A stretch of DNA of 64,000 nucleotides, taken from Elusimicrobiota bacterium. GTDB lineage: Bacteria > Elusimicrobiota > UBA8919. The translations under genes were made by a program, and so were the position numbers. Under the pieces are notes generated by a model, which searched no databases, was not told where the DNA came from, and was given only the letters and a program-made list of their open reading frames with translations. The stretch is from the NCBI GenBank assembly GCA_016218625.1, contig JACRDL010000065.1:1521-65520 (forward strand), read 5' to 3'. This document shows positions 6,659 to 64,000 of the stretch, one piece after another (within the stretch, counting starts at the first letter, position 1; each line of letters begins with the position of its first letter).

Positions 6659-6667
6659 AGTGAACTT

Positions 6668-6701
6668 CCGAACAAGTGTTCGGCATCGAACATTTGTTCG
6701 G
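6668..6701. terminator. Family E double hairpin (ccgaacaagtgttcgg-catcgaacatttgttcgg) between fchA and metF
   Basis: Self-complementary. A sister copy lies at 7592-7624 on the other side of metF. Confidence 0.5.
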
Positions 6702-6704
6702 GTT

Positions 6705-7591: not shown

Positions 7592-7624
7592 CCGAACAAG
7601 TGTTCGGTGCCGAACACTTGTTCG
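7592..7624. terminator. Family E double hairpin between metF and metV
   Basis: ccgaacaagtgttcggtgccgaacacttgttcg. Confidence 0.5.
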
Positions 7625-8305: not shown

Positions 8306-8781
8306 TGTTTTACCTCACATAGAATAGTTTTTATAATTTCCGGAATTTTATTTCTGATTTCCTCCGAAAGTCCAATCTTCGGCTCAATCTCTTTCGGTTC
8401 AACACCGATAAAAACAATCTCTTTCGGAATAGTGCCAACTTTTTCGGCAATTTTTAATGCATCAATTATATTCAAATCATGTAAAGATGTTTTCTGCATT
8501 TCACTATTTCGAAATTGTGAAATTGTGAAATTGTGAAATTTGTAAATATCGCCATGAACTCCGCCGTTTTTTACAGCGTCAACTATTATTAGTTTGTCAA
8601 CATCCCTTAACGAAAGAATAACATCAAGTGCTGATGTCCCACCATCAATAAATTGGACATTGGACTTCGGACATTGGACTTCGGACAACTCTTTTATTAT
8701 ATGAACCCCAATCCCTTCATCACCCATTAAAATATTTCCGAAACCAACAACCGCAATTTTACAGTGTTCTGTATTTTCCAA
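8302..8781 (-). CDS. [NiFe] hydrogenase maturation endopeptidase (HycI/HyaD family)
   Basis: GDEGIGVHI motif. 159 aa. Sits immediately downstream of the hydrogenase large subunit. Confidence 0.75.
   Translation of the reverse strand: MENTEHCKIAVVGFGNILMGDEGIGVHIIKELSEVQCPKSNVQFIDGGTSALDVILSLRDVDKLIIVDAVKNGGVHGDIYKFHNFTISQFRNSEMQKTSLHDLNIIDALKIAEKVGTIPKEIVFIGVEPKEIEPKIGLSEEIRNKIPEIIKTILCEVKQ
8521..8552. repeat. Intragenic tandem heptamer array (gaaattg x4), in-frame in the hydrogenase maturation protease
   Basis: Encodes …HNFTISQFRNS…. A second array lies at 8655-8690 (ggacattggacttcggacattggacttcggaca). Confidence 0.75.
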
Positions 8782-12847: not shown

Positions 12848-12872
12848 AAAATTATACTTAAAAAACCTATTT

Positions 12873-12968
12873 TGTCAAGATAAGCCACAGAATTTCACAG
12901 AAGTTCATAGAAGTTTTTTCTGTGTCATTTCTGTGTCTTTCTGTGGCGCCTTTCAAATTCCGATACCA
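12873..12968. repeat. Repeat family B copy. Structure: [cacagaa]n … [ttctgtg]n hairpin … cctttcaaattccgata.
   Basis: Copies are at 15925-16035 and three tandem copies at 41343-41641. Each lies immediately 3' of a stop codon (moeA, tupA, the methyltransferase). Confidence 0.85.
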
Positions 12969-12977
12969 CTAAATAAT

Positions 12978-15212: not shown

Positions 15213-15938
15213 TTGGCTCTTTTTCACAAATACTTGAAACAATAAATTAATTCCCAGCGCAATTATAATTAAAATCAAACCGAGTGCGAGTCCTAATATA
15301 AATTCACCCTTCGTTGTTTCAAACGCAATTGCTGTGGTAATATTTCTGGTATAGTTTTTAATATTACCTCCCAGCATCATTGAAATACCGACTTCCGAAA
15401 ATACCCGCCCGAAACCTACAATTACGGCAGATAAAATCATTATATGCAATTCTTTAGCAAGTGTTGATATTGACTGAAATTTGGTTGCCCCCAAGGCAAT
15501 CGCTGTAATGTATATTTTTTTATCCGCATTTTCCATGACTGATAAAACGAGCGCAGTAATTATCGGCGTTGCAAGGATAATCTGTCCTATAATCATTGCA
15601 TATGGCGTATATAAAAAGTTGAACCCGCCCAAAAAACCTTTTCTGCACAGCATTGAATAAACAACAAGACCTATTACAACAGTGGGTAAAGCCGTTAACG
15701 TATTAATAATAGTTATCAAAATTTGTCTGCCCTTAAACTGATTTATAGATATAATAAATACCAGCGACATGCTAAAAATTGCAGCAATTAAAACGGATGT
15801 ACCTGTTATCCAAAGCGATGTCCATGAGATTTGTAAAATGTTTCCGTCCAATGTAAATATCAAAAAAAATGCTTTCCCTAAACTATCAAAAAAATAACTC
15901 ATAATTTTTGTGTAATCAATTTGAACAAGATAAGCCAC
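15210..15938 (-). CDS. tupB: ABC transporter permease (tungstate/molybdate type)
   Basis: 242 aa, polytopic. Sits between the ATPase and binding-protein genes. Confidence 0.7.
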   Translation of the reverse strand: MAYLVQIDYTKIMSYFFDSLGKAFFLIFTLDGNILQISWTSLWITGTSVLIAAIFSMSLVFIISINQFKGRQILITIINTLTALPTVVIGLVVYSMLCRKGFLGGFNFLYTPYAMIIGQIILATPIITALVLSVMENADKKIYITAIALGATKFQSISTLAKELHIMILSAVIVGFGRVFSEVGISMMLGGNIKNYTRNITTAIAFETTKGEFILGLALGLILIIIALGINLLFQVFVKKSQ

Positions 15939-16035
15939 AGAATGTCACAGAATTTCACAGAAGTTTTTTCTGTGCTGTTTCGGCGACTGTCCCGCTTGCG
16001 GGATAATTCTGTGGCGCCTTTCAAATTCCGATGCT
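15925..16035. repeat. Repeat family B copy (supplies the last codons of tupA)
   Basis: caagataagccacagaatgtcacagaatttcacagaag…ttctgtggcgcctttcaaattccgatgc. Confidence 0.85.
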
Positions 16036-16866
16036 CTGAAATAATTGTTTGTTTTTTATCTTAAATTTATTTATCAGTTCTTTGGCCTCTTTTGAAGAAA
16101 GCCATCCGACGAATTGTTTTGCCTCATTATATTTTATCTGTTTATGTAAATTGGGATTGACAATTATGACGGAATACGGATTGTTTAAAATTTTATCTCC
16201 TTCAAAAAGCACACCCAAATCAATTTTATCTTCATATGAAATAAAAGTTGCCCTATCCGTCAAACAATACCCATTTTTTTCATTTGCAATAATAAGTGTC
16301 TCTCCCATTCCCTGTCCCGTTTCCACATACCATTGACCTTTCGGAGAAACATTACACCGATTCCATATTTCAAGTTCTTTTATATGTGTTCCCGAATTAT
16401 CTCCCCGGGATATAAATATAAGTTTTTCTTCAACGATTCTTTTAAACATATCAACAACCTTTTTTAAATTCCTAATTTTAGCAGCATTTTTTTCGGGTCC
16501 AACAATAATAAAATCATTATAAAATACCGGTTTTCTATCTATTCCAAAACCTTTTTTTACAAAATTTTCTTCCGCTAGCGGGTCATGGACCAAAACAATA
16601 TCAACATCGCCATTTTCGGCAAGTTTTAGCGCTTTACCGGACCCTACGGCAATGATTTGTATTTTGCTCCCGTATTTTTTTTCAAAAACAGGCAAAAGAA
16701 AATCCATTAGACCGGAATTTTCTACGCTGGTTGTTGTGGCCATCTTGAGAATTGGTAATTTAGGAGCGCAACCGATAAAGACAGTGAACAGTAAAGTCAA
16801 AACCCACCACTTCCTACTTCCGCGTCTGTTCTGCGTCTTGTTCCGCACCTGTTCCGTGTTTTTCAT
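16021..16866 (-). CDS. tupA: Tungstate-binding periplasmic protein
   Basis: Contains ATTTSVENSGL, the TTTS signature of TupA-type binding proteins, plus a signal peptide/TM. The last five codons and the stop are contributed by a copy of repeat family B. Confidence 0.7.
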   Translation of the reverse strand: MKNTEQVRNKTQNRRGSRKWWVLTLLFTVFIGCAPKLPILKMATTTSVENSGLMDFLLPVFEKKYGSKIQIIAVGSGKALKLAENGDVDIVLVHDPLAEENFVKKGFGIDRKPVFYNDFIIVGPEKNAAKIRNLKKVVDMFKRIVEEKLIFISRGDNSGTHIKELEIWNRCNVSPKGQWYVETGQGMGETLIIANEKNGYCLTDRATFISYEDKIDLGVLFEGDKILNNPYSVIIVNPNLHKQIKYNEAKQFVGWLSSKEAKELINKFKIKNKQLFQSIGI

Positions 16867-17441: not shown

Positions 17442-20198
17442 TTAGGTCTTTTCAAGCCGAACCGCACATACTTTCAATTCGGGAATTTTTGAAACAGGGT
17501 CAAGTGCAGTATTGCTGAATAGAACATTTGTTTTTGTTTCAGCAAAATGAAAACTCAAAGATATGGTGCCTTCCGGCGTGTTTTCGGTAATATGTACCCT
17601 GACACGAACATCGCCACGCCGAGAGACAACTTTGACAAAATTGCCGTCAATAAGATTCAATTTTTCAGCATCTAACGGATTTATCTCCAGCAGTTCTTCT
17701 GGCTTGAGTTTATTAAGCCCCTCAACTTTGCGTGTAAGTGTGCCTGTATGGTAGTGATACAATAACCGTTCTGTTGTAAGTATAAACGGGAACTCAGTAT
17801 CAGGTTGTTCTACTGATGGAGTATAGGAAACAGGCACAAACTTTCCTTTACCGCGGCTAAATCTATCTTTATGAAGAATATCTGTTCCCGGATGGTTGTC
17901 GTCGGGACAGGGCCACTTCAATGTCTTTTCTTTTAACCGTTTATATGAAATCCCTGCATAAATCGGCGCAACTTGGGCAATTTCGTCCATTATTTCAGAC
18001 GGCGTTTGGAATTCAAATCCGGGCTGATTCATTTTTTTTGCAAGTTCGCAAACAATCTGCCAGTCGGATTTTGATTCGCCCAGCGGCTTAATCGCCTTAT
18101 TTAAGAGTTGAACTCTTCTTTCGGTGTTGGTGTATGTGCCGTCTTTTTCAGCGAAACTGCACGCGGGAAGAACGATGTCGGCAAGTTTTGCCGTTTCTGT
18201 CAGAAACATATCCTGAACAACAAGAAACTCAAGTTCGGTCAATGAACACTCAGAGTGTTTTGAACACGGCTCGCTTAAAATAGGATTTTCTCCGATAATA
18301 TACATTGCTTTAATTTCGCGGATGTACGCTTTTTTGAACATCTCTGTCAGCGTTAATCCGGGATTGGAATTTAATTCTGTATTATAAAATTTCTCAAATT
18401 TTTGCTTTATTATTTCATCGGTTACAGATTGATATCCGGGAAATACATTCGGAAGCGCACCCATATCGCATGCACCCTGAACATTGTTCTGACCGCGCAG
18501 TGGATTTATTCCCGTTGACGGTTTGCCTATATTTCCTGTTAAAATCGCCATGTTGGAAACGGCGAAAACATTATCTGTTCCGTGCGAGTGCTGCGTTATG
18601 CCCATTCCGTAAAGAATCGTAGCGGGTTTTTCAGTCGCATATATTCTCGCCGCTTCTATAATCAAGTCCTTTTTAACGCCCGTAATTTTTTCTGTCTCAT
18701 CTAGATTTATCTCTTTCAAACTTTTTAGATACTCCTCGTAATTTTCGCATCTTTCGCGGATAAATTCCGCATCCTGCAGATTTTCATCAACAATAACTTT
18801 TGCGATGCTATTAAGCAAAGCAACATCGGTTCCTGGTTTATGATGCAAAGAAAGATATGCGAATTTACAGAGTTCAATTTTTTTGGGATTGATAATAATC
18901 AGTTTTGCACCGTTATCAACTGCTTGTTTTATTTTTAAACCTATTACGGGATGAGTGGATGTGGAATTTGAGCCGATTGACAGAATAGTTTTTGCAAACG
19001 CTATTTCAGAAATTGAATTGGTCATCGCACCGGAGCCGAGTGTTTTTGCAAGCCCTACAACGGTCGGGGCATGACAAAGACGGGCGCAATGGTCTATGTT
19101 GTTCGTCTTCAATACCGCGCGGGAAAATTTTTGTATGACATAATTTTCCTCGTTGGTGCACTTTGCCGACGACATAACGGCGATATCGCTGCCTTTATAT
19201 TTTGAAAACTTTTCGGCAATCAAACTTAATGCCTCGTTCCAATTTACAAATACAAAATCTGTATTTTTAAAACTTTTGTAGTCGCTTGATTTATCAAGCC
19301 CAATAAATTGGGCAACTACATCTTTTTTAACCAATGGTCTTGTAAGTCGTTCAGAATGGTGCACGAACTCTTTTATACCGAATCTACCTTTCACGCATAA
19401 TTGACCGTAATTTGTTGGACCATCAATGTCAGGAATTACTCTGACAATTTTTTCATCTCGGACTTCGGACTTCGGACTTCGGACTTCTAACTTAATTGAG
19501 CATCCGACGCCGCAGTAAGGACACAATGTTGTAATAACTTTATCCGGTTGAAACGATTCCTTAAAGTCCTTTTCCAAAAGCGCGCCGGTAGGACAGATAT
19601 CCACGCAGGCGCCGCAGAATTCACAATTTGAATCTTGGAGTTTTTTATTGAAAGAAGTGCCAGGTACCGATTTAATTCCGCGAAACATAAAATCTACCGC
19701 GGCGTTTTTTCTTAATTCTTCGCAGACACGAACGCATCTTCCGCAAAGAATGCACAAATTATAATCCCTGTTAAAAAACGGCTCTTCTTCGTATACGGTC
19801 AGGTTTTTATCTATAAAGGGCAAAGTTAATTTTTCAATTCCGAGATATGCGGCAATCTGCTGGAGTTCGCATCTCAAATTTTTATCACAAGTCGTGCATG
19901 TTTTATTATGTTCAGTTAAAATAAGTTCAAATACCTGCCGGCGCAAATTTTGAAGTTGTTCAGTATTTGTTCTGACAACCATCCCATCTTCAATATATGT
20001 AGTGCAAGCGGTTGGGCATCCTTTCATATTATCAATTTCCACAATACAAAGCCGACAAGCACCGTAGGGTTTAAGTCCGGGATAATAACATAAAGAGGGA
20101 ATATAAATATTATTTCTTTTTGCGGTTTCCAATACGGTTAAACCCCGTTCAATTTCTACTATTTTATCGTCAATGGTTAATTTTATTTTCATATTCAT
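17442..20198 (-). CDS. fdhA: Formate dehydrogenase alpha subunit (Mo/W-bis-PGD), Cys-type, with N-terminal [2Fe-2S]/[4Fe-4S] NuoG-like domains
   Basis: 918 aa. The active-site region IDHCARLCHAPTVVGL has Cys where selenoproteins have Sec, and there is no in-frame TGA. A molybdopterin oxidoreductase fold follows, with a ferredoxin-like N-terminus. Confidence 0.9.
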   Translation of the reverse strand: MNMKIKLTIDDKIVEIERGLTVLETAKRNNIYIPSLCYYPGLKPYGACRLCIVEIDNMKGCPTACTTYIEDGMVVRTNTEQLQNLRRQVFELILTEHNKTCTTCDKNLRCELQQIAAYLGIEKLTLPFIDKNLTVYEEEPFFNRDYNLCILCGRCVRVCEELRKNAAVDFMFRGIKSVPGTSFNKKLQDSNCEFCGACVDICPTGALLEKDFKESFQPDKVITTLCPYCGVGCSIKLEVRSPKSEVRDEKIVRVIPDIDGPTNYGQLCVKGRFGIKEFVHHSERLTRPLVKKDVVAQFIGLDKSSDYKSFKNTDFVFVNWNEALSLIAEKFSKYKGSDIAVMSSAKCTNEENYVIQKFSRAVLKTNNIDHCARLCHAPTVVGLAKTLGSGAMTNSISEIAFAKTILSIGSNSTSTHPVIGLKIKQAVDNGAKLIIINPKKIELCKFAYLSLHHKPGTDVALLNSIAKVIVDENLQDAEFIRERCENYEEYLKSLKEINLDETEKITGVKKDLIIEAARIYATEKPATILYGMGITQHSHGTDNVFAVSNMAILTGNIGKPSTGINPLRGQNNVQGACDMGALPNVFPGYQSVTDEIIKQKFEKFYNTELNSNPGLTLTEMFKKAYIREIKAMYIIGENPILSEPCSKHSECSLTELEFLVVQDMFLTETAKLADIVLPACSFAEKDGTYTNTERRVQLLNKAIKPLGESKSDWQIVCELAKKMNQPGFEFQTPSEIMDEIAQVAPIYAGISYKRLKEKTLKWPCPDDNHPGTDILHKDRFSRGKGKFVPVSYTPSVEQPDTEFPFILTTERLLYHYHTGTLTRKVEGLNKLKPEELLEINPLDAEKLNLIDGNFVKVVSRRGDVRVRVHITENTPEGTISLSFHFAETKTNVLFSNTALDPVSKIPELKVCAVRLEKT
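19458..19494. repeat. Intragenic tandem heptamer array (gacttcg x4), in-frame in fdhA
   Basis: Encodes KLEVRSPKSEVRDEK. Confidence 0.75.
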
Positions 20199-21825
20199 TA
20201 GAAAAATGTTTTAATGTTGATATTACAGGATTGGGTGCTGCCTGACCCAACCCGCACAGCGAGGTCAATTTAATTGTTTGGGATAGTTCTTTTAGTTTTT
20301 CAAGGTCTTCTTTTTTTGCATTACCGCTTGTAATTTTTTCTAAAATATTTAAGAGTTGTTTTGTACCGACTCTGCATGGTGTACATTTGCCGCAGGACTC
20401 ATTTGAACTAAATTCAACAAAATACTTACACATTTGTGTAATATCCATTTTCGTATCTACGATGACAATTCCGCCGGAACCCATAGAAGCACTTATTTCG
20501 GAAAGCGACTCAAAATCTACCGGTTTATCCAGATATTTTCCCGGAACGCAACCTCCCGTAGGCCCTCCAATAAATACCGCTTTCAATTTTTTTCCTTTCG
20601 GCAAACCGCCGCAGATGTTAAAAATTATCTTCTTTAATGAAATACCAAGCGGTAACTCAACAACGCCTGAATTATTTACTATCCCTGAAATTGAAAATAA
20701 TTTTGTTCCCTTACTTTTTTCAGTTCCATATTTATTTAACCAATCGGCACCGTTCAGAATAATCTGCGGTACATTGGCATATGTTTCAACATTATTTATA
20801 ACAGTCGGTTTATCTGATAACCCTTTTTCAACCGGATACGGCGGTCTAAAACGAGGTATCGCTCTTTTACCGGAAATCAATTCCAAAAGGGCTGTCTCTT
20901 CACCTGAAACATATCCACCGGCAATTGTTACAACAAAAATTTGAAAACAGAAATTTGAGCCTAAAATATTCTTTCCAAGAAAACCCAACTCGGTAGCATC
21001 CTTTATCGCTTTTTGTATTCTCTCAATAGATAAAGAGTATTCATTATTAATATAGATATAGCCAACTTTTGCACCGATAGCATAACCGGCAATAACCATT
21101 CCCTCAATTATAGAATGCGGGTCGCTTTCCAATAAAACCCTGTCCTTAAAAGTTCCGGGTTCGCCTTCTTCTGCATTACAAATAATATAGGCGATTGGGC
21201 GATTGGGCGGTTGGGCGATTGAGTGACGACATAGTTCCCATTTTATACCTGTCGGGAAACCTACACCGCCGCGACCGCGCAGACCGGATTTTTTTATTTC
21301 GTTGATAATTCCTTCCGGTGACATTTTTAGTGCTTTTTCTAAACCACTATACCCACCCTCTGCGATATAATGATAAATATTTTCCGGATTTATAAATCCG
21401 CACCGTCGTAAAATCCGTCTTACCTGATGTTTCATAAATGGTATCTCCAACAAGTTGGATATACCATCTATTGATTTTTCGCCGACCGTTCCGATAACAA
21501 GATTTTTCGGTATGCTGTTATGTAAAATATAATCAACTATTTTTGGAACATTTTCAACTGTTACATTTCCAAAACAAATTCTTGGGCCGCCGGGTTTTGA
21601 TACATCAATCAGCGGTTCCAAGTAGCAAAGCCCGATGCAACCGACAGGGATTATTTCAAAATTGATTTTTTTCTTTCTACACAGGGTGACTAAAGCCGTC
21701 TCTACATCGTCGGCACCGGCGGATTTTCCGCAGGTTGCCATTCCAACAAAAATAAGTATTTTTGATGGATTTGTAATTTTTTCCCACTCGTTTATTGCAG
21801 TTAGTTTTATTTTTTGAAATGTCAT
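20170..21825 (-). CDS. NADH-binding FMN/FeS subunit (NuoF/HydB-like)
   Basis: 551 aa with an N-terminal thioredoxin-like domain, an FMN/NADH-binding core and a C-terminal 4Fe-4S motif (ESCGKCTPCR). Confidence 0.85.
   Translation of the reverse strand: MTFQKIKLTAINEWEKITNPSKILIFVGMATCGKSAGADDVETALVTLCRKKKINFEIIPVGCIGLCYLEPLIDVSKPGGPRICFGNVTVENVPKIVDYILHNSIPKNLVIGTVGEKSIDGISNLLEIPFMKHQVRRILRRCGFINPENIYHYIAEGGYSGLEKALKMSPEGIINEIKKSGLRGRGGVGFPTGIKWELCRHSIAQPPNRPIAYIICNAEEGEPGTFKDRVLLESDPHSIIEGMVIAGYAIGAKVGYIYINNEYSLSIERIQKAIKDATELGFLGKNILGSNFCFQIFVVTIAGGYVSGEETALLELISGKRAIPRFRPPYPVEKGLSDKPTVINNVETYANVPQIILNGADWLNKYGTEKSKGTKLFSISGIVNNSGVVELPLGISLKKIIFNICGGLPKGKKLKAVFIGGPTGGCVPGKYLDKPVDFESLSEISASMGSGGIVIVDTKMDITQMCKYFVEFSSNESCGKCTPCRVGTKQLLNILEKITSGNAKKEDLEKLKELSQTIKLTSLCGLGQAAPNPVISTLKHFSNEYENKINH
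21189..21222. repeat. Intragenic tandem heptamer array (gggcgat x4), in-frame in the nuoF-like gene
   Basis: Encodes SIAQPPNRPIAY. Confidence 0.7.
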
Positions 21826-23158: not shown

Positions 23159-23231
23159 CAGGATTAAGGATTAAGGATTAAGCGGGCAGTGTCAAAAAAC
23201 TTAATCCTTACAACTTATCACTTAATCCTGC
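23159..23231. repeat. Family G element: [ggattaa]x3 … [ttaatcc]x3 inverted heptamer arrays between acsE and ackA
   Basis: ggattaaggattaaggattaag…cttaatccttacaacttatcacttaatcc. Confidence 0.7.
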
Positions 23232-24459: not shown

Positions 24460-24485
24460 CCCTGTTAGAGTTCACTCTAACAGGG
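24460..24485. repeat. Short family D-like hairpin in the ackA 5' leader
   Basis: ccctgttagagttcactctaacaggg. Confidence 0.7.
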
Positions 24486-24492
24486 CAAGGAT

Positions 24493-24627
24493 TAACACAG
24501 ATGACAACAAAGTTGTCATTGCGAGGGCGAAGCCCGTGGCAATCCCATCATTAAAACCGAGATTGCTTCACGGAGCAAGGTCCCGTTTTGACGGGATTCG
24601 CAATGACATTTCGGCGGCAATCCGTGG
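24493..24627. repeat. Repeat family A copy (with an internal extra hairpin insert)
   Basis: Matches 4971-5060 over most of its length. Lies between acsD and ackA. Confidence 0.85.
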
Positions 24628-24713
24628 TTTCAGTATATCTCCGTAATTCCACAAAACTAACACGAAACTTTTTAGCATTTGTTCTGCGTTTTAGTTTTGC
24701 GTCTGTTCCGCGT

Positions 24714-30826: not shown

Positions 30827-30861
30827 ATCCTACATCCCCCAACACCCCTCTTGTTCTGTAA

Positions 30862-30995
30862 CCACAGATTTCACGGATTTTCACAGATGACAACAAAGTT
30901 GTCATTGCGAGGGCAAAAGCCCGTGGCAATCCCATCATTAAAACCAAGATTGCTTCACTTCGTTCGCAATGACATTTCTTGTGTAATCTTGTGGT
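30862..30995. repeat. Repeat family A copy
   Basis: Matches 4951-5093, including the flanking cacagat arrays. Lies between the response regulator and the coiled-coil gene. Confidence 0.85.
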
Positions 30996-33635: not shown

Positions 33636-34535
33636 CTATGTTTTTACTAATATTTTATTTTCACTCTTTCTACTAACAAACAAGTCATCATCTAATTCTT
33701 TTAATCGTTTATTTATAACTTCAATATATTTATGTTCTTTTTCAATCATTATGTAATTTCTTCCAAATTTTTTGGCTATATATCCTGTCGTGCCTGTACC
33801 CGCAAATGGGTCTAACACAATATCGCCTTCTTTACTCGTTGCTAAAATAATTCTGGTAAGTAACTTTTCTGGCTTTTGCGTGGAATGAACTTTTTGACCG
33901 TTTTCATCTTTTATTCTTTCATCACCGGTACAAAGTGAAAAATACCAATCACTTCTCATCTGTTTCCCGTTATTCATTTCTTTCATCAATTTATAATTAA
34001 ACGTATATTTTTTGGAATATTTGTCCTTTGTCGCCCAAATAAGTGTTTCATGTGCATTAGTAAAACGAACCCCACGAAAATTTGGCATCGGATTTGTTTT
34101 TATCCATACAACATCATTTAATATCCAAAATCCTAAATCTTGCATCACTTTTCCAACTCTAAAAATATTATGATATGCACCAATAACCCAGATTGTACCT
34201 GTTTTTTTGAGAATCCGTTGACATTCATATAACCAATTTTTGATAAATTCATCATATTCCTCAAAACTGCCAAATTTATCCCAATTATCATTAACTCCAT
34301 TAACAATTGAATTATTTGGTCTTATTAGAATATTTTGTAACTGTAAATTGTACGGTGGGTCGGCAAAAATCAAATCAATAGAATTATCAGGAATTGCTTT
34401 CATTACTTCAGTACAATTACCTTCAATAATTTTATTTGTGAAATCACTAACATTCTTTGTAAATGTTTTTGCATCGTAAATCACAATATTACTTTTCATT
34501 AACAACGGCTTTTTTCCTTTTTTCTTTTTATACAT
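33636..34535 (-). CDS. DNA methyltransferase, beta-class (N6-adenine or N4-cytosine)
   Basis: The DPPYN motif IV precedes the FAGTGTTG motif I, which is the circularly permuted beta-class order. 299 aa. Confidence 0.85.
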
Positions 34536-36854: not shown

Positions 36855-38177
36855 TTAAATTAAAATTTCGCTGTATTCTTTTTCGGCAAATTCGCTTTTA
36901 TATTGCTTAATTAACGGTATTATCTTTGCAAAATCAAAATTATTCCCCATCATAACCTCTTTTATTGACGAGACATTTATTTTTTTCTTAAGAAGCAAAC
37001 CGAAAATGCCCGACTTATCAACATCTTTTACAAGAACAAACCCGACAATTTTATTATCTTTAAGAATGATTTTCCTATAAATGCTACTTGCAATATTTTT
37101 TCTGACCAGTATTTCATATTCCTCACCTTTCGGTTTTGTTATTCCGCAAGAAATTGTCGGAAGTTCAAAAAATTCTACAGAGTTCATACTAATCGAGCCG
37201 TCATATTTTATGTTTTTTTCGACCATATTAAACCCCGCGATTTTTCCCTGAATAACGGCATTTGGCCAGAGTGCATTTATTGTACTTTCCCCTGTAATCA
37301 AATCGTTTGCCTGTGCGACATCGCCGGCAGCATAAATATCGGAAACAGTTGTTCTTAAATAATCATTTACAACAATTCCCTTCTCGGTTTTAATTTCAGT
37401 GTTTTTTACAAGTTCCATATTTGCCTGAACGCCTTTGCCGATGATTACAATTTGGCAATCAATTTTTTCGCCATTTTCAAGAACAACTCCGGAAACACTA
37501 TTCGCTTCGCTCACCCCCGAATGAATTCGGGGGCTACATTTGTTGCCTAAAATCTCTTTTGCAGCAAGACCGGTTAGAACCTTAATCCCTTCCTTTTCAA
37601 TTTTATCCTGAATAAATTTTGCGCCCTCTTCGTCAAGCATCTGCGAAAGAACATGCTTTGACTTAACAACAACTGTTACTTTTATTCCCCGTTTGTGCAG
37701 AGCATATGCCGCGCGAAGACCTATGAGTCCTCCGCCGAGCATAACTGCCGCCTTGGAATTTTGCAGTCGTTTTTCTATTTTTCTTGCATCATCTATGTTC
37801 CTTAACCCAAATACCCCTTCCTTTTCAATCCCCGGAATTTTTTCCATCTTTGAACGCGAACCGGTTGCAATTAAAAGTTTGTCAAATGTCAAAACACTAC
37901 CATCAGAAAGTTTAACCTTTTTGTCCGATGACATAACCGCATCAACCTTTTTTCCAATAATTGCATTGACATTGAATTTCCTGTAAAAATCATCTTCCCT
38001 GTATTTAAGTTTTCCCTCGGGGATTATTCCCGCAAGATAGTATGAAAGCATGCATCTTGAATAAACCGGATAATTTTCGTCGGAAACGACTGTGATTTTT
38101 CCTTCCATATCAATTGACCTTATCGCTTCAACACAAGAAATACCGGCGGCACTTGCACCGATTATCAAATAATTCAT
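36855..38177 (-). CDS. FAD/NAD(P)-binding pyridine nucleotide-disulfide oxidoreductase, CODH-associated
   Basis: N-terminal GxGxxG (IIGASAAG) and a second NAD-binding motif (VMLGGGLIGL). 440 aa. Sits downstream of cooS-cooF. Carries an in-frame palindrome insertion (family F). Confidence 0.75.
   Translation of the reverse strand: MNYLIIGASAAGISCVEAIRSIDMEGKITVVSDENYPVYSRCMLSYYLAGIIPEGKLKYREDDFYRKFNVNAIIGKKVDAVMSSDKKVKLSDGSVLTFDKLLIATGSRSKMEKIPGIEKEGVFGLRNIDDARKIEKRLQNSKAAVMLGGGLIGLRAAYALHKRGIKVTVVVKSKHVLSQMLDEEGAKFIQDKIEKEGIKVLTGLAAKEILGNKCSPRIHSGVSEANSVSGVVLENGEKIDCQIVIIGKGVQANMELVKNTEIKTEKGIVVNDYLRTTVSDIYAAGDVAQANDLITGESTINALWPNAVIQGKIAGFNMVEKNIKYDGSISMNSVEFFELPTISCGITKPKGEEYEILVRKNIASSIYRKIILKDNKIVGFVLVKDVDKSGIFGLLLKKKINVSSIKEVMMGNNFDFAKIIPLIKQYKSEFAEKEYSEILI
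37501..37540. repeat. Family F hairpin inserted in-frame in the FAD oxidoreductase gene (encodes CSPRIHSGVSEA)
   Basis: ttcgcttcgctcacccccgaatgaattcgggggctacatt. Confidence 0.8.
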
Positions 38178-40531: not shown

Positions 40532-41322
40532 TTTTCCGCCTCCAGAATGATTTTTATTTTTTCAATCTGACTTAAAATAGAACTATCACATAACAACACC
40601 CCGCGAGCATCTCGCAAATTTTTATTATAACCGATAAAACTTAAAATATCAACCCTGTTAGAGATGTCACACCGTGACACGGTATCTCTAACAGGGTCAA
40701 TCCCATCAACATTTTTTCCTATAAATTCCTCGTCAGTTTTATTCAAAACTTTATTCCCGACGATAAAAACTTTGTTTATTTTCAAATCATAGCAAAGTTT
40801 TTTTATTCTTTTCGCGGTTTCAATGGATTTTATATCGGGTTCTACAATAATTAAAACGGCATCAACTCCTGTTGCCGTTCCACGAGAAAGGTTTTCAATT
40901 CCCGCAGGCATATCCATTATAAGGACTTCGTCTCTTTGAAGAACGAGATGTCCCACGAGCGTTTTAATAAACGCGTTTTCTGGGCAGAAACATCCTGAGC
41001 CGCCTTTCTTAAGCGAACCCATATTTATAAGACGGATATTTTTATATTCGGGGCAGAATTTTTCGGGTATGTCGTCGACTTTCGGATTCATTTTGAAAAA
41101 ACCGTTTTTTGCTTCGGTTCGTTCGTTGATTATATTTTTCATTCCCGATATAGGCGTGATTTTTTCTGCATTGGGAAAATTAAGTGTCTGGGCAAGATTT
41201 GAGTCCGGGTCGCAGTCAGCGGCAATAACCTTTTTTTCTTTTGAAAAAGCAACCGCAATTGCAGCAGCAATTGTGGTTTTTCCGACACCGCCTTTGCCAG
41301 TTACAGCAATTTTTTTTATCAC
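40528..41322 (-). CDS. cooC: CODH nickel-insertion ATPase (CooC/AcsF)
   Basis: Walker A IAVTGKGGVGKTT. I place the start at the GTG (VIKKIAVTG…). The longer reading in the ORF track translates repeat family B. Carries an in-frame palindrome insertion (PVRDTVSRCDISNRV). Confidence 0.85.
   Translation of the reverse strand: MIKKIAVTGKGGVGKTTIAAAIAVAFSKEKKVIAADCDPDSNLAQTLNFPNAEKITPISGMKNIINERTEAKNGFFKMNPKVDDIPEKFCPEYKNIRLINMGSLKKGGSGCFCPENAFIKTLVGHLVLQRDEVLIMDMPAGIENLSRGTATGVDAVLIIVEPDIKSIETAKRIKKLCYDLKINKVFIVGNKVLNKTDEEFIGKNVDGIDPVRDTVSRCDISNRVDILSFIGYNKNLRDARGVLLCDSSILSQIEKIKIILEAEK
40663..40706. repeat. Family D-like palindrome inserted in-frame in cooC (encodes PVRDTVSRCDISNRV)
   Basis: ccctgttagagatgtcacaccgtgacacggtatctctaacaggg has the same arms as family D with a different loop. 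Confidence 0.8.
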
Positions 41323-41342
41323 GGTTTTAATTCTATCAAACT

Positions 41343-41641
41343 GACCGTTATTTGTCAAGATAAGCCACAGAATGTCACAGAATTTCACAGAATTTTTTTC
41401 TGTGTTCTTTTTCTGTGTGATTCTGTGGCGCTTTTGAAATTCCAATACTACAAGATAGCCACAGAATGTCACAGAATTTCACAGAAGTTTTTTCTGTGTT
41501 CTTTTTCTGTGTGGTTCTGTGGCGCCTTTCAAATTCCGATACTCCAAGATAGCCACAGAATGTCACAGAATTACACAGAATTTTTTTCTGTGTTCTTTTT
41601 CTGTGTGATTCTGTGGCGCTTTTGAAATTCCGATGCTGTAA
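41343..41641. repeat. Three directly abutting tandem copies of repeat family B (about 96-100 bp each)
   Basis: Unit starts lie near 41343, 41451 and 41546, with 90% or more identity between units. There are no unique spacers. Confidence 0.9.
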
Positions 41642-41645
41642 AATA

Positions 41646-42482
41646 TCAGGCAATATCTTTTTTAAATAAATATATCATATACCGCAGGTTCTGTCTGAAT
41701 TTTTCAGGGTTAAGTTTTTCGGGGTTTTTATTATGAATATCTTCAGCAATTTTTTTGATTTTCCGTTTGAAAAAAAACTTTGCCATTTTTGTAATTATAG
41801 GGATTTCATCGTGCGCAAGTGAAACAACGGCTTCCGTAATAGGAATTACAAATTTTCTATAATATATATCCCCGATTAAAAGTGTCGGCAAAACATTTTC
41901 GGTAATATCTTCATCTCTAACAATTTTGAAACCGTTTTTTTCCGCTTCATAAAGAAACCGGGATAAAACGGCGCAGTTTCTATAATATCCCGTCGCTTGG
42001 TTTCTAAAATAATCGGATATCAGAAGATAACCGTCTTTATTTAATATACTGTTACATTTTTCAAAAAGATTTTTCAAACTTATGTATTGGGAACTTTCAC
42101 TCATCAATATAAGGTCGTACTTTTTTTCGGCAAAAAATTCTTCAAATTTTGTGAGATGAAACTTAACCGCACCTTTAAATTTTTCATTTATTATTTGTCG
42201 GTTATAAAGGTCAGGGCTCATGCATTCAACATCAGCACCTTTTGAAATAAGTATTTCGGTTGAAATGCCGGTTCCGCAACCGACATCAAGAATTGTCGCA
42301 ACCTCCGACGGAATATAACTCAAAAGTTTTTCGGTATATTTTAATTGAGCACTCTTCAGGTCTTCTATCGTCAAGTTATGCTCGCCTTCAAAATATCCGA
42401 AATGAAATGCAGGAAGACCTAACACTTCCCTGCAAAGTTTTAACGAGTAATCAATTTTTCTATCTTTTGACCGCATTTTCAA
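41646..42482 (-). CDS. Class I SAM-dependent methyltransferase
   Basis: LDVGCGTGISTEIL motif I. 278 aa. Confidence 0.7.
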   Translation of the reverse strand: MKMRSKDRKIDYSLKLCREVLGLPAFHFGYFEGEHNLTIEDLKSAQLKYTEKLLSYIPSEVATILDVGCGTGISTEILISKGADVECMSPDLYNRQIINEKFKGAVKFHLTKFEEFFAEKKYDLILMSESSQYISLKNLFEKCNSILNKDGYLLISDYFRNQATGYYRNCAVLSRFLYEAEKNGFKIVRDEDITENVLPTLLIGDIYYRKFVIPITEAVVSLAHDEIPIITKMAKFFFKRKIKKIAEDIHNKNPEKLNPEKFRQNLRYMIYLFKKDIA

Positions 42483-51546: not shown

Positions 51547-51556
51547 AAAGGTTTTA

Positions 51557-51600
51557 CCCTGTTAGAAGTATCGTAGCACGATGTGCCACTTCTAACAGGG
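51557..51600. repeat. Repeat family D palindrome (ccctgttagaagtatcgtagcacgatgtgccacttctaacaggg) filling the whole larA / FAD-oxidase intergenic gap
   Basis: Perfect 12-bp arms. The right arm encodes the last two codons and stop of larA. Related copies are at 62737-62780, 40663-40706 and 24460-24485. Confidence 0.85.
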
Positions 51601-52983
51601 TTTTATCAAAAAATTAGGATTATCTACCACTGCAACCGTTTTATCGCCGAGATGTTTTTCAAGCCATAATTTTAACCGTTTTTCAACCGGGTCGGATTCA
51701 TTACCCCAAAAAACAAAGGGCAAAAATCCGTAATCTTCTTCGGGTATCCCGTCCTGAATTATATGTAAATTTCCCCACCCGACGAAATGCAATATCTGAA
51801 AAAGGTCAACCGGCTTTTGCTTGCCTATCTTAAAATCTTTTTTAACGACATTTATCACGCGAACCATCGCTTTTTTTATTCCTTCCGATTTTTCGTCATA
51901 TTTATTGAGTTCGCCCATCCCTACTTTCATAAGATTTTTGAATTCTTCATTGCCCCATCCCTGATTGCACGGTGCGACATTAAGGACGATTCCACCTTTT
52001 TTAACGGCGTGATATGCACAGTGAGTCGCCTTGCCCATCTGGTAAAGATTTACCCCCCAGTGACCGGCGCCGGATATAACAATATCCGCACGCTCTTTTA
52101 TATTTACCGTCCAGACATTTTTAAGAATTTTCGCTGCCCTAAGATGGCTTTCAAATGTCTCGCCGCCTTTTAAGTAAACCAAATCACCGGCGGTATCAAT
52201 TATTGAAGTTATTGTATAGACCTCCCTTTTATTTTTTTTCAGCGTTTCAATAATTGCTTTTACGATTTTTTTCTTCGTCTCAAAAACCGGGTTGCCTTCT
52301 ATATTTCCCAAATCAACATTGTGAGCGAAACCGCACTCGCCGAACATTTTTAAGTGCTCGTAGGTAATTGTGTCAATATCGCATACCCCGGGACATAATG
52401 CCTTAGGACCCCCTGCGATACCGGCAAAATAATGGTTTTCTACATCGGTCAGCGGAATTACAATATCGGAATTAAAAACTGTCTCGTTGATTTTTACCGT
52501 TAAGCCGTCAATTTTACCCGCCTCAACATTATTTTCCCTGCATTTGTGAATTACAAAATTCACCCTGCCGAACATTTGTCCGCCCAAAATATTTTTAAGT
52601 TCTTCGTCGGTGGACGGACGATGCGTGCCGGTTGCGATGACGACTTTTATTTTAGTAAGTGGTAAGTGGTAAGTAGTAAGTAGTAAGTCAACTAAAACAG
52701 GTAAAAGAATCCGTGTGTGGATGTTCGGTCTGTCGTGGTCGTCAACTATTATTGACAAATCTCCGCCGGCATAATTTTCTTTTATAAGAATACTTAAAGG
52801 TTTCTGATTGCCGACCGGTTTTTCAAGCGCATCAAAAAGGTTTTGCCAGACATTTTTAATAACAGGAAGTTTTTTAGGAACAACCAAAGGCAGGAATTGC
52901 CCGTTATCAATAACTTTTTGCGGAATGAAATCTGACAGGGTCTTTTCGCCGTAATGAAGAACGACATCTTTTGATTTAAGCAT
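51592..52983 (-). CDS. larA: Lactate racemase-like nickel-pincer enzyme (LarA/DUF2088 family)
   Basis: 463 aa with LarA-like organisation. Contains an in-frame gtaagt(g/a) heptamer-array insertion (LLLTTYHLPLT). Confidence 0.55.
   Translation of the reverse strand: MLKSKDVVLHYGEKTLSDFIPQKVIDNGQFLPLVVPKKLPVIKNVWQNLFDALEKPVGNQKPLSILIKENYAGGDLSIIVDDHDRPNIHTRILLPVLVDLLLTTYHLPLTKIKVVIATGTHRPSTDEELKNILGGQMFGRVNFVIHKCRENNVEAGKIDGLTVKINETVFNSDIVIPLTDVENHYFAGIAGGPKALCPGVCDIDTITYEHLKMFGECGFAHNVDLGNIEGNPVFETKKKIVKAIIETLKKNKREVYTITSIIDTAGDLVYLKGGETFESHLRAAKILKNVWTVNIKERADIVISGAGHWGVNLYQMGKATHCAYHAVKKGGIVLNVAPCNQGWGNEEFKNLMKVGMGELNKYDEKSEGIKKAMVRVINVVKKDFKIGKQKPVDLFQILHFVGWGNLHIIQDGIPEEDYGFLPFVFWGNESDPVEKRLKLWLEKHLGDKTVAVVDNPNFLIKPC
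52655..52689. repeat. Intragenic tandem heptamer array (gtaagt[g/a] x5), in-frame in larA
   Basis: Encodes LLLTTYHLPLT. Confidence 0.75.
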
Positions 52984-52985
52984 TT

Positions 52986-54344
52986 TTATAATTTCTTTAT
53001 TCTTTCCCAGAACTTTGCCGAAAGTTCGCGGGATTTCTGACAGATAAACTCTTCGTTGATATTTTCAAGTTTTTTGTCTTTCATAAGAGTTTTACCATTG
53101 CAAATTGTAGTGTCCACCGTCGCATCCACTATTCCGAAAATCAAGTGTCCCAGAAAATTATCTTTTGACAAAGGAGTCGGCGGAATATAGTCAAGAACTA
53201 TCAAATCGGCGGGAGAACCCACTTCAATTTTTCCCACAGGCGCGCCTGTTTTTTTTCCGAAAATTTTTTCGGCGATTTTTGAATTATTCTGCAAAAGCAT
53301 TTCCGGGGCTTCGCAGAAAGCAACCCGCGGGTCTTTTTTATTATGACGGTGAATCAAATATGCGCATCTCATCTGCGAAAGCATATCCGACGACATCCCG
53401 TCCGTGCCGAGTCCGACGGTAATGCCTTTTTTCATCATAGTAAGGACGTCCGCACAGCCAACCGCATTGTTCATATTGCTTTCGGGATTGTGCACCGCAT
53501 TAGTTTTTGTTTCATTCATTATTTCCATTTCTTTTTCGTCTATGTGAATGCAGTGAATGAGCATTGTCTTTTCACCGAGGGCTCCGAATTTTTTCAATCG
53601 CTCAACAATCCGCATTTTATATTTTTCGACGGAGTCATTCTCATCTGCCAAATCCTCGGCGCAATGGATGTGCATTCCGACATTGTATTTTTTTGCCAAA
53701 GCGGCGTGTGATTCCAATGTGTCATTATTGACGGTAAACGGAGCGTGAAGTCCGACCATACCAGTAACGAGGGACGGGGGACGAGAGACGAGGGACGAGA
53801 GAAAGCGTTCATTCTCTTTAAGTCCTTCGCCGCCCTTACCATAACGGTCTGAAGTCCCGAAACATAAACAGGCACGAATGCCGATTTTTTCAACCGCTTT
53901 TTGAATCTCATCAAGCGAACCAACCTGAAATTCCTGCGATTCGTGATGATCAATAATTGTTGTTGTGCCGTTCTTCACGCATTCAATCAAAGGGATTAAC
54001 GAGGAATAATAAATGTCCTCCGCCGTCAGAACCCTGTCAAGTTTCCACCAAAGTTTCTCAAGAACTTCCACAAAGTTTTTCGCAGGGGTCCCCGGAATAT
54101 ACATCCCGCGGGCGAAAGTGGAATACAAATGGTGGTGCGTGTTGATAAATCCCGGAAGAATTATTTTTTTCTTGGCGTCAATAATTTTTAATTGAATTTT
54201 ATCTTCTGAAACTCTGAAAACTTTTGCTCTTACTTCATCCGTATTTCCCACATCTTTTATTACTCCGTCCTCAAACAACACCCCACCGTTTTCAATAACT
54301 TCCGACGGTGTAATCACCGTACCGTTACACAATAAAGTCAACAT
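52986..54344 (-). CDS. Amidohydrolase (SsnA / chlorohydrolase-aminohydrolase family)
   Basis: PGFINTHHHLY metal-binding motif. 452 aa. Contains an in-frame heptamer-like insertion (SLVSRPPSLVTG). Confidence 0.7.
   Translation of the reverse strand: MLTLLCNGTVITPSEVIENGGVLFEDGVIKDVGNTDEVRAKVFRVSEDKIQLKIIDAKKKIILPGFINTHHHLYSTFARGMYIPGTPAKNFVEVLEKLWWKLDRVLTAEDIYYSSLIPLIECVKNGTTTIIDHHESQEFQVGSLDEIQKAVEKIGIRACLCFGTSDRYGKGGEGLKENERFLSSLVSRPPSLVTGMVGLHAPFTVNNDTLESHAALAKKYNVGMHIHCAEDLADENDSVEKYKMRIVERLKKFGALGEKTMLIHCIHIDEKEMEIMNETKTNAVHNPESNMNNAVGCADVLTMMKKGITVGLGTDGMSSDMLSQMRCAYLIHRHNKKDPRVAFCEAPEMLLQNNSKIAEKIFGKKTGAPVGKIEVGSPADLIVLDYIPPTPLSKDNFLGHLIFGIVDATVDTTICNGKTLMKDKKLENINEEFICQKSRELSAKFWERIKKL
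53767..53805. repeat. Intragenic GA-rich tandem heptamer-like array (gagggac/gagagac), in-frame in the amidohydrolase
   Basis: Encodes SLVSRPPSLVTG. Confidence 0.6.
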
Positions 54345-62076: not shown

Positions 62077-64000
62077 TTGGGCCTCCCGGTTTTAATTGAA
62101 TGTATTTTTGAAAATATTCTTTTGCTTCTTTGTTATTTTGCGATTGCGAATAAATCACGCCTACATTGTAATAAATATCGGCGGACGACGGTGTGTACTC
62201 AATCGCCTTTTTATATTCTGTAATTGCATCGTCAATTTTACCGCCAACAAAATTTTCATAACCTTTTCTCTGATAAATTTTTGACAATTGTATTAGTGAA
62301 TCCAAATCCATTTTATCGTACTGATATGCTTTTTTAAAATAGTCAATCGCCTTTTCCGCACCACCCCAATCCTCTTTTGCCAAATACAAAAGCCCCATAT
62401 TATAATATGCCGGCGAGTATGTTGAATCAAGTAAAATCGTGTGAGACAGCGTTCCAAAAGCACCGCTAAAATCCTTTCGCTGCCTTAAAATATCGCCGAC
62501 ATTATTGTGAAGCCAGATAAGTTCGGGACCGACTTTAAGCGATTTTTTTAATGCAAAAATTCCATCTTTTTTATCACCTGAATCAATTAAAAATTTTCCA
62601 TAAAAATACGAATATCGGGCAATAACTTCCTGCTCCCTATATTCGTATTTTTTTAACAAGTCACGCTTTACATAAAAATCCCAAATAAGTTTGTCAGATT
62701 TTTTCCGCTCCGTCCATAACAAACCGTTTAAGTAAACCCCGTTAGAAGTATCGTAGCACGATGTGCCACTTCTAACGGGGTGAAGCGACTTCTTTACTTT
62801 TGCCGTGTTGACAGCAGAATAATATATTTTTGATTTTTCCGGAACATTTTTTGATAAAAATATATTGTTATATGAGTCAATTATTGTAACGTCTTGCCTT
62901 TTATTAACAACGTTTTTCAGATAAGAAAGCGTAAAAATCGTTTCATCCACCTCGTCGTGCAAATACAAAACGCCGTTTCTTGCAACCGTTTTTAACACAT
63001 TAACCGGATAATCGTAGGCAGTGAAATTATATCTGTTATGATTCGTCCTTAACTGTAAGAATAAATGAAAACCTAATACCAAAAAAAACAACGCCAAAAT
63101 ATACTTAAATTTTGCCAACCTGCCGATTTCATAGCCCGTCCAAGTCGCCATCATAATCCATGCGGGAATATAATACGGAGTAAAAGCGTCAATATCCTGC
63201 GGGGTAAATTTGAAATTGAGCAGGATTATAAGTCCAACTGTATTTGCCAAAAAAATGAAAACGGTAAGCAGGGCGAATTTAATATCTTTTTTAATCAAAC
63301 TTACAAGCCCGAATACGGAGAGAACGACAAACAGTCCGAAGTTTTGTACTAACTGACTAAAAAAATTTCTTATAAACAGAAGTTTAGTCGCAAATCCGAC
63401 TTTTGCCGCCAATTCCAGCCCTCTGTATTGAAACCTTCCGATATGGGCAGTAAAATTTTTGAGATTTTCGGGATTGCCCCAGTCAATCGGCGGATTTACC
63501 GACGAGCGAATCGGAAGATAAAGATATAAAAAAAGCCCGGGCAGAAAAAATATAAGTAAGGTTAATATCGTTTTCAAATTAAAAACTTTCGGATTTTTCC
63601 ATATCAAATAAAATGCAAAAATAGGTCCAAAAAGAAACATAATGTAGTGATTGGCAAGTGAAAGCCCGTAGACAAATATAGCGAGTTGTAAGTAGCGAGT
63701 AGTGAGTAGTAAATAAATTATCAAAACGACAAAAAATGCGTTAAGTGTGTAGACCTCGGAAATGATTGACTGCGACCAGAAGGTTTTTGAGAACGCCAGT
63801 GCTAATGCCGAGAGTGAGTAAGTGAGTAAGTGAGTAAGTGAGGGGGGAGTTTGGTTTTCCTTACTAACTGCTAACTGCTTACTGCTAACTATCAAATAAA
63901 GGATGACGCAGGTTAATGCGCCGAAAAACGCACTCATTAAATTAACGCGGTATGCGATGTTTCCGAACGGAATTAGCAGAGTAAAAATTTTGCCGAGAAT
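62039..64000 (-). CDS. Partial CDS that runs off the window's right edge. Polytopic membrane glycosyltransferase-like N-terminus (PMT/DUF2723-like) followed by C-terminal TPR repeats.
   Basis: The ORF continues upstream past 63937 with no stop (hand translation …ILGKIFTLLIPFGNIAYRVNLMSAFFG…). It has more than 10 TM helices followed by TPR-like repeats (…AYQYDKMDLDSLIQLSKIYQRKGYEN…AIEYTPSSADIYYNVGVIYSQSQNNKEAKEYFQKYIQLKP). It contains in-frame family-D palindrome and heptamer-array insertions. Confidence 0.6.
   Translation of the reverse strand: MLGKIFTLLIPFGNIAYRVNLMSAFFGALTCVILYLIVSSKQLAVSKENQTPPSLTHLLTYSLSALALAFSKTFWSQSIISEVYTLNAFFVVLIIYLLLTTRYLQLAIFVYGLSLANHYIMFLFGPIFAFYLIWKNPKVFNLKTILTLLIFFLPGLFLYLYLPIRSSVNPPIDWGNPENLKNFTAHIGRFQYRGLELAAKVGFATKLLFIRNFFSQLVQNFGLFVVLSVFGLVSLIKKDIKFALLTVFIFLANTVGLIILLNFKFTPQDIDAFTPYYIPAWIMMATWTGYEIGRLAKFKYILALFFLVLGFHLFLQLRTNHNRYNFTAYDYPVNVLKTVARNGVLYLHDEVDETIFTLSYLKNVVNKRQDVTIIDSYNNIFLSKNVPEKSKIYYSAVNTAKVKKSLHPVRSGTSCYDTSNGVYLNGLLWTERKKSDKLIWDFYVKRDLLKKYEYREQEVIARYSYFYGKFLIDSGDKKDGIFALKKSLKVGPELIWLHNNVGDILRQRKDFSGAFGTLSHTILLDSTYSPAYYNMGLLYLAKEDWGGAEKAIDYFKKAYQYDKMDLDSLIQLSKIYQRKGYENFVGGKIDDAITEYKKAIEYTPSSADIYYNVGVIYSQSQNNKEAKEYFQKYIQLKPGGPNAETIKKWLASN
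62737..62780. repeat. Family D palindrome inserted in-frame inside the GT/TPR membrane-protein CDS (encodes HPVRSGTSCYDTSNGV)
   Basis: cccgttagaagtatcgtagcacgatgtgccacttctaacgggg differs from the 51557 copy at only two positions. It is translated within ORF 62039..63937. Confidence 0.85.
63811..63892. repeat. Intragenic palindromic heptamer array ([gagtaag]x3 … [ctaactg]x3) in the GT/TPR CDS; a second array lies at 63684-63712
   Basis: Encodes …LAVSKENQTPPSLTHLLTYSLSA…. Confidence 0.7.

Follow-up and report, generated by a model that had tools for sequence, protein, structure and literature searches.

Three intergenic spacers of a 64,000-nucleotide stretch of Elusimicrobiota DNA (hereafter the window) carry the same palindrome of iterated CACAGAA heptads, one of them in three tandem copies, and this raises the question of whether the element serves the adjacent genes or is a repeat that has multiplied in the genome. 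According to Pfam, the window is a Wood-Ljungdahl and C1-metabolism gene cluster with all genes on the minus strand, including PanC, RecA, FolD, MTHFR, NiFe hydrogenase, FTHFS, MoeA, TupABC, and MobA along with formate-dehydrogenase-like and NuoEF-like proteins, AcsE, acetate kinase, CdhD, RACo, ACS, CooS, and CooC. The element, designated family B, lies between the MoeA stop and the fhs promoter (12876-12975), between tupA and tupB (15926-16043), and as an array between the stop of a SAM-methyltransferase gene and the cooC promoter. The gene labels of a first-pass annotation of the window held by Pfam at all three sites (MoeA/FTHFS; PBP_like_2 for tupA with an ABC ATPase; CooC-type ATPase with SAM methyltransferase). 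Our reading, held at a probability of roughly 0.6, is that groundwater Elusimicrobia carry family B as a palindromic repeat specific to their lineage, which is multi-copy, non-coding, and non-autonomous and belongs to the MITE, REP, or BOX kind.

Tandem Repeats Finder identified a period-94 tandem array of 3.0 copies with 93% matches (41356-41634), and a profile HMM built from the copies placed five units in the window (41353-41456, 41453-41551, 41544-41645, 12872-12975, and 15922-16043), three of them head to tail in the array at 41353-41645 and the remaining two single. The HMM units and the folds bore out the hairpin element that the first-pass annotation had described from the letters, with three tandem copies plus single copies at moeA and tupA; the unit of about 96 bp including caagataagcc given there is real, with the corrections that its canonical length is 94 bp (range 94-122 bp) and that the 5' 'caagata' may be flank. 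In each unit, a hairpin of ~64 nt, whose three CACAGAA/TTCTGTG helices of 7-9 bp have small internal loops between them, precedes an unpaired and conserved tail of ~30 nt (GCGCYTTTSAAATTCCGATRC...AARATA; Table 1). The heptads and the tail are near-invariant among copies, the 5' arm heptads keeping a strict 10-nt period in every copy and the 3' arm heptads being irregularly spaced (spacers of 3 and 5-6 nt). The pattern CACAGAANNNCACAGAA, with up to two mismatches, matched 16 times compared to 0.40 expected, and none of 100 shuffles reached 16. Fold prediction, which had been proposed as a check, gave a significant hairpin for the unit both as RNA (-37.9 kcal/mol, z = -7.4) and as DNA (-21 kcal/mol, z = -6.1). 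The array is non-coding, with most frames interrupted by stop codons.

Table 1. Family B units, neighboring promoters, and in-gene tandem tracts (window positions unless a contig is named).
Feature	Position	Strand	Basis or remark
Unit consensus: (CAAGATA)-A-GCC-ACAGAA-tgt-CACAGAA-ttt-CACAGAA-ttttt-TTCTGTG-ttcttt-TTCTGTG-tga-TTCTGT-GGC-GCYTTTSAAATTCCGATRCTNYAARAT(A)			sequence reading and copy alignment
Unit 1 hairpin, GCC-(CACAGAA)x3 ... (TTCTGTG)x3-GGC	41364..41429	+	sequence, fold, HMM
Unit 1 tail, gcttttgaaattccaatactacaagat; terminal CAAGATA doubles as 5' junction of unit 2	41430..41456	+	sequence, copy alignment
Unit 2 hairpin	41458..41523	+	sequence, HMM
Unit 2 tail	41524..41550	+	sequence, copy alignment
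Unit 3 hairpin	41552..41617	+	sequence, HMM
Unit 3 tail, ending ...gtaaaata; methyltransferase stop 41646-41648 (minus) directly after	41618..41645	+	
Single-copy hairpin; innermost 5' heptad CATAGAA, giving a G-T wobble	12884..12947	+	sequence, fold, HMM
Single-copy tail; MoeA stop at 12978-12980 (minus)	12948..12975	+	sequence, Pfam, HMM
Single-copy hairpin; middle 3' heptad degraded to TTCGGCG, then nested mini-hairpin tgtcccgcttgcgggata	15934..16015	+	
Single-copy tail holding last tupA codons (..SIGI*) and stop 16021-16023 (minus)	16016..16043	+	
cooC sigma-70-like promoter, TTGACA-17-TAGAAT with TG, 11/12 matches	41330..41358	-	conserved in L054
fhs sigma-70-like promoter, TTGACA-16-TATAAT, 12/12 matches	12851..12878	-	adjoins 5' end of copy at 12884
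In-gene tandem tracts	8511-8540, 8655-8687, 19458-19487, 21190-21221, 52653-52688		
In-gene tandem tracts, further	53767-53802, 63679-63710, 63813-63842, 63864-63890		
(CRCGGAAC+3) tracts in relatives	L054:2463-2515; L055:13228-13275 and 2530-2615		

The element also enters gene models. The earlier claim that it donates the last codons and stop of tupA was confirmed, as stop 16021-16023 and the terminal ..SIGI* lie in the tail, and so was the suspected N-terminal extension of cooC, which is false because the deposited CooC (P0001, 286 aa) starts inside unit 1 and its homologues have 247-248 aa. The NCBI entry with a CooC 100% identical to that of the window is assigned to an Elusimicrobia MAG. 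The tail contains a 7-bp palindrome, TTTSAAA (41434-41440, 41528-41534, and 41622-41628 in the array), whose central base is G or C about equally often; this base alternates G, C, G across the adjacent tandem units and shows partial linkage with a C/T variation located 4 nt upstream. A promoter within the tail was rejected on sequence reading, the TTGAAA/TAAAAT spacing being only 11 nt. A DNA-uptake sequence was likewise rejected because CACAGA is essentially confined to the elements. No tRNA or tmRNA genes were found in the window.

Thirteen further copies, including second copies on the same contig, were recovered on 10 other contigs from at least five sample series, nearly all of them groundwater metagenomes, bringing family B to 18 copies at 14 independent sites (window plus other contigs). 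An exact-pattern scan with the tail found one true copy among species-representative genomes, in Elusimicrobia bacterium UBA4817 (L001), and true copies on nine metagenome contigs, of which one came from Hainich groundwater and four belonged to a single sample series; the remaining tail-pattern matches lacked heptads and were due to chance. No family B copy occurred in the viral collection: scanning for three CACAGAA heptads returned only unrelated direct repeats, mostly on giant-virus contigs, and nothing beyond chance matches came from scans with the tail and the 5' end. When the false ORF that spans the array served as a protein query, no candidate copies emerged.

Variation among these copies indicates how they arose. 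The number of heptads is not constant: L001 has 2+2, the window 3+3, and L040, whose copy is a 5'-truncated half-element with four TTTCTGTGTA repeats, 0+5. The tail is missing in the second L022 copy and cut off at the tandem junction in L013. Nested mini-hairpins sit in the apical loop or the middle 3' heptad, including cccccga...tcggggg in L018 and further ones in L001 and L032. One of them, cccgcttgcggg, is common to the window copy at 15934 and to L008, and the variants are therefore copied as units. No compensatory changes were found among 22 stem pairs in nine copies of the canonical subfamily; deviations in the stem are breaks (A-A, A-C, and U-U), and one U-U break (CACTGAA opposite TTCTGTG) is common to five copies from different contigs. 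Such a pattern is what would be expected of a DNA repeat copied from masters and not of an RNA selected for structure.

The strong and significant fold could also be that of a structured non-coding RNA gene or cis-regulatory RNA. This we hold to be extremely unlikely given the lack of compensatory substitutions, the occurrence of copies in both orientations relative to genes, and the lack of a promoter belonging to the element. Wobble pairs, tested as a sign of RNA, favored neither strand among the copies, and Rfam gave no match in the window at the gathering threshold, with permissive thresholds yielding weak microRNA-like hairpin noise only (best sub-threshold match mir-1954, 25.8 bits vs. 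a threshold of 99). The palindromes might instead be immobile and have formed many times over at their present loci, through slippage and template switching in a lineage where tandem heptamers readily expand, as the same genomes hold many ~30-nt tracts of tandem 7-11-nt units and hairpins of other heptads, the copy number in the arms varies, and an arm-only half-element exists (L040). However, an origin in place cannot explain an identical 30-nt tail, identical spacer bases, and a shared nested insert at unrelated loci in different metagenomes, and we give it very little weight.

All 14 independent sites are intergenic, with mixed orientation relative to the flanking genes. At eight sites the element points opposite to them, namely the three window sites and L003, L008, L013, L025, and L040 (the L025 neighbor being PFK by Pfam and the neighbors in the other four being called by ORF length only). 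At least five are co-directional with Pfam-confirmed neighbors, comprising glycosyltransferases in L001, a holin-like gene and CAT at the two L018 sites, an amidase in L030, and UvrD in L032, and the L022 site lies between a divergently transcribed response regulator and MFS transporter. GC skew tracked the gene strand in every locus and hence was uninformative for orientation with respect to replication. The first-pass annotation had stated that the element always sits 3' of a minus-strand stop codon, a rule that could not fail within the window because every gene there is on the minus strand and that the co-directional L001, L018, L030, and L032 copies and the L022 copy between divergent genes show not to be a property of the family. 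It had also named copies in random orientation and position, with no association to gene ends, as the outcome that would refute it; the orientation part of this was borne out by the mixed sites, and the position part was not, all copies being intergenic.

The placement in the window invites the explanation that family B is a transcription terminator or mRNA 3'-end stabilizer maintained by the host at operon boundaries, its repetitiveness being secondary. The gene-sense strand there reads a GCC...GGC hairpin followed by CTTATCTTG, with five T in 8 nt (as a terminator, a GCC/GGC stem base followed by CUUAUCUU, five U of eight), other copies read CTTATTTTA after the hairpin (six T in eight), and the hairpin is predicted to form in either orientation. 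Two of the three window sites lie between a stop codon and the window's two best sigma-70-like promoters, those of fhs (12/12) and cooC (11/12), whose -35 boxes are the 'tgtcaa' flank at the 5' end of the copies, in the case of cooC abutting the array. The third lies between tupA, which encodes the binding protein, and tupB, where a REP would classically act as a stabilizer. Against a maintained terminator, at least five of the 14 sites have the other orientation, in which GCCTTTCA or GCTTTTGA, containing no more than 3-4 T, comes after the stem, and the L022 copy lies in a divergent promoter region. At L003, only ~30 nt lie between the element and the start of the downstream gene, too little for a promoter, and read-through must therefore occur. 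A terminator scan flagged inner helices only, those of the antisense strand; a terminator has no use for the conserved 30-nt tail, and covariation is lacking. We therefore regard a host-maintained terminator as unlikely to account for the family.

A further possibility is that a regulator or nucleoid protein binds the element as double-stranded DNA, the three direct and three inverted heptads forming an array of binding sites with a helical repeat of 10 bp. The strict 10-nt period of the 5' arm in all copies and the near-invariance of heptads and tail are in keeping with such an array, but the spacing of the 3' arm is irregular (3 and 5-6 nt), the heptad number differs between copies, and related hairpins use CACAGAT at 9-10 nt, CACGGAA at 11-14 nt, and AGGATTA at 7 nt. 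A regulon was rejected because the neighboring genes are functionally unrelated, comprising C1 metabolism, glycosyltransferases, amidase, UvrD, PFK, CAT, and an MFS transporter, and a binding array is considered quite improbable. From the three natures suggested in the first-pass annotation, the non-autonomous mobile element thus fits best, the terminator or 3'-UTR element is possible only in the window's orientation, and the protein-binding site found no support.

Presence and absence of the element were compared at the cooC spacer with the Logan contig L054, which has the same gene order as the window (amylase-like/methyltransferase/cooC/cooS), a CooC 80% identical to that of the window, and flanks with 85% nucleotide identity. 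The methyltransferase-cooC spacer of L054 contains no family B unit and holds 136 nt without a match among the sequences compared. Toward cooC, collinearity of the two contigs extends as far as '...ttatttgtcaagata', and at the opposite end it starts again with 'aatcttttttaaataaat...', the homology edges of the replaced segment in L054 reading '...tttgtcaagata' and 'aatcttttttaaataaat'. Because the L054 spacer lacks a unit, the array was either gained by the window lineage or lost from L054, and the alignment presents the event as a replacement rather than a clean insertion. Contigs L055, L057, and L061 were rejected as comparisons since a different gene lies upstream of cooC and they have no orthologous spacer. 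In L057 (6890-9206), a methylase and a MjaI-type restriction enzyme lie just upstream of cooC, and a DNA N6/N4 methyltransferase gene occurs in the window at 33636-34535 within the acetyl-CoA synthase cluster. TupC homologues, sought for an empty tup site, were none closer than 56% identity, and the TupC contig was 1.3 kb; for the moeA site, no record matched the MoeA sequence exactly.

The ends of the element may point to a preferred target. CAAGATA occurs in L054 exactly at the junction, although its spacer is without the element, and precedes eight of 13 independent copies, the others having TAAAATA or similar. The 3' ends of the element read CTNYAARATA, and tandem junctions share a single CAAGATA. 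No target-site duplication, which the first-pass annotation had proposed to look for, was detected in any copy compared: each copy has AARATA-like strings at both of its ends, but the two are never identical. The other eight CAAGATA strings in the window, approximately the number expected by chance, are unoccupied. From the single comparison with L054, we infer that the element inserts alongside A-rich sequence for which it has a preference and which its 3' end imitates. CAAGATA, which overlaps a -35 box in two window copies, may accordingly be flank rather than element; alternatively, it may be the first 7 nt of the element, with L054 keeping a remnant.

Family B is dispersed among unrelated intergenic spacers of several genomes in either orientation, with presence differing between close relatives; it is amplified in tandem, modular, and open to nested mini-hairpins. 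It also breaks short-read assemblies: contig L053, from an independent assembly of the window organism, ends inside unit 3. Copies would arise by copying of master sequences, most likely through a hairpin in single-stranded DNA on which an enzyme from another part of the genome would act in trans. No transposase, integrase, HUH, or Y1 transposase gene was present among the 52 Pfam-scanned ORFs of the window, nor was an autonomous partner found there. A-rich YAARATA sites would be the places beside which insertion occurs. Since the 3' end of the element (CTNYAARATA) resembles the target site, each junction of a head-to-tail array would have a single CAAGATA in common, and the heptad arms would grow and shrink by slippage. 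As a side effect, where the tail faces an upstream gene the transcript would carry a hairpin that has a GC-rich base and runs on into CUUAUCUUG or CUUAUUUUA, which could act as a weak terminator or a 3'-end stabilizer of the upstream mRNA. The tupA-tupB spacer is comparable to the malE-malF spacer of Escherichia coli, which contains a REP. Such a side effect cannot be the reason that the family exists because more than one-third of the copies have the other orientation, with only 3-4 U after the stem, and because the L003 gene starts too close downstream. A broader and rather improbable proposal is that family B, sister hairpins with CACAGAT, CACGGAA, and AGGATTA heptads, and the ~30-nt in-gene heptamer tracts reflect one undescribed DNA-level process of the clade. 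The candidate would be hairpin-guided single-strand transposition or copying, in which the iterated heptad stem would serve as substrate, target mimicry would yield head-to-tail arrays, and single arms could be deposited in frame within ORFs. It is the in-gene tracts that prompt this proposal.

Comparison with known systems places family B among small prokaryotic repeats without assigning it to a described class. The proteobacterial REP, BIME, and REPIN sequences resemble it as short extragenic palindromes with many copies in both orientations, often clustered, that form mRNA hairpins, classically between genes of one operon, and are thought to be mobilized in trans via single-stranded hairpins (PMC3116915, PMC2817692, PMC3733652). 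A REP, however, measures 20-40 nt and bears a GTAG or CGTC tag, and a REPIN is made of two REPs in inverted arrangement (PMC3116915, PMC2817692, PMC3733652), whereas family B is a single 64-nt iterated-heptad hairpin with a 30-nt asymmetric tail and forms head-to-tail instead of alternating arrays. A REP/REPIN assignment was rejected since family B has neither tag and no inverted pairs; no RAYT transposase was seen in the window. The pneumococcal BOX, RUP, and SPRITE repeats are likewise modular with variable internal tandem sub-repeats (boxB), insert into each other, and form intergenic clusters with stable folds, SPRITE being terminator-like (PMC10969869). However, BOX modules are 45-59 nt and not heptads, and RUP has target-site duplications and an IS630 partner (PMC10969869). 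There is no sequence relationship to family B.

With a length <300 bp, non-coding, and multi-copy, family B has the size and copy number of a MITE, and the inverted repeat GCCACAGAA/TTCTGTGGC is present, with conserved sequence running ~30 nt beyond it on one side. It was rejected as a classical MITE on the lack of a target-site duplication and on inverted repeats that appear not to be strictly terminal. Correia elements, the MITEs of Neisseria, are similar in being intergenic hairpin repeats of 100-150 bp that can bring or abut promoter hexamers and alter transcript ends, but their outermost sequences are 26-bp terminal inverted repeats and they show a TA duplication, in contrast to the tail outside the inverted repeat and the absence of duplication in family B. 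Palindrome-associated elements of the IS200/IS605 type share the hairpin as recognition element, insertion by a short specific sequence with no duplication, and a conserved left-flank target resembling the right end; derivation from them was rejected since their left and right ends carry two different hairpins whereas family B has only one, and no TnpA was found in the window. Rickettsia palindromic elements (PMC10969869) lie in frame in genes like the companion mini-hairpins of the present genomes (cooC, Pyr_redox, and NuoF-like; 40-100 nt), whereas family B was found only between genes, though its tail can supply the last codons of a gene. Integron attC sites (no GTTRRRY core, contiguous units without cassettes, and no integrase in the window) and a CRISPR array (units abutting without spacers) were also rejected. 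Family B is best classed with the small palindromic repeats of prokaryotes, as a new family of an ordinary kind.

Other hairpin repeats accompany family B in the same genomes. Family A hairpins occur at 3684-3848, 4949-5095, 24487-24636, and 30861-30995, all four intergenic and on the plus strand, with outer CCACAGAT...ATCT(T)GTGG heptad arms (CACAGAT) round a conserved branched module gtcattgcgagggcgaagcccgtggcaatccc...gattgcttc...ctcgcaatgac ('gtcattgcgag...'); the stem is followed by a run rich in T that lies antisense to the genes. A hairpin with tandem AGGATTA arms lies between acsE and ackA (23159-23230; DNA fold z = -6.2) and has the architecture of family B with an unrelated heptad. 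The cccccgaa..ttcggggg mini-hairpin is nested both in a family A copy (3699-3720) and in a family B copy of L018. Two copies of a GC-richer palindrome, CCGAACAAGTGTTCGG..., occupy folate-gene spacers (6667-6702 and 7593-7624), one of them followed by TTTT on the plus strand and terminator-like.

Palindromes and tandem tracts also occur inside genes. The mini-palindrome family ACCCTGTTAGA...TCTAACAGGGT was found at 40652-40697 (inside cooC), 51556-51601, and 24460-24486, the cooC copy being a 48-nt in-frame insertion of 16 residues flanked by ATTGA/GTTGA that is absent from the L055 and L054 orthologues; the L054 cooC has a different 87-nt insertion a few codons upstream of that point. More in-frame palindromic insertions relative to orthologues were present at 37496-37538 (Pyr_redox_2), L054:753-810 (amylase-like), and L055:10750-10850 (NuoF-like). 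Conserved enzymes of the window contain ~30-nt tracts of 3-5 perfect tandem 7-8-nt units (HycI, FdhA-like, NuoF-like, LarA-like, amidohydrolase, and TMEM260-like genes; Table 1) that gave no hairpin on folding, and HycI is collinear with E. coli HybD across both of its tracts, which replace sequence without lengthening the protein. Four copies of an 11-nt unit (CRCGGAAC+3) form the N-terminus of the window tupA (16818-16856) and, as an in-frame 11-residue insertion, occur at one methyltransferase loop in L054 and L055 and not in the window; the unit also makes up both arms of an intergenic L055 hairpin (CACGGAA).

To our knowledge, no repeat family has been described before from the phylum of the host, and family B has an unusual architecture that joins an iterated-heptad stem to an asymmetric tail. 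In uncultured Elusimicrobia it constitutes a hazard for annotation, having produced a false 22-residue CooC N-terminus and supplied the TupA C-terminus, and for assembly, as it breaks short-read contigs. Family B sits inside Wood-Ljungdahl and tungstate-transport operons and may set relative expression levels there. The in-frame palindromes and heptamer tracts in conserved enzymes suggest that this lineage would be a good one in which to study tiny selfish DNAs invading coding sequence.
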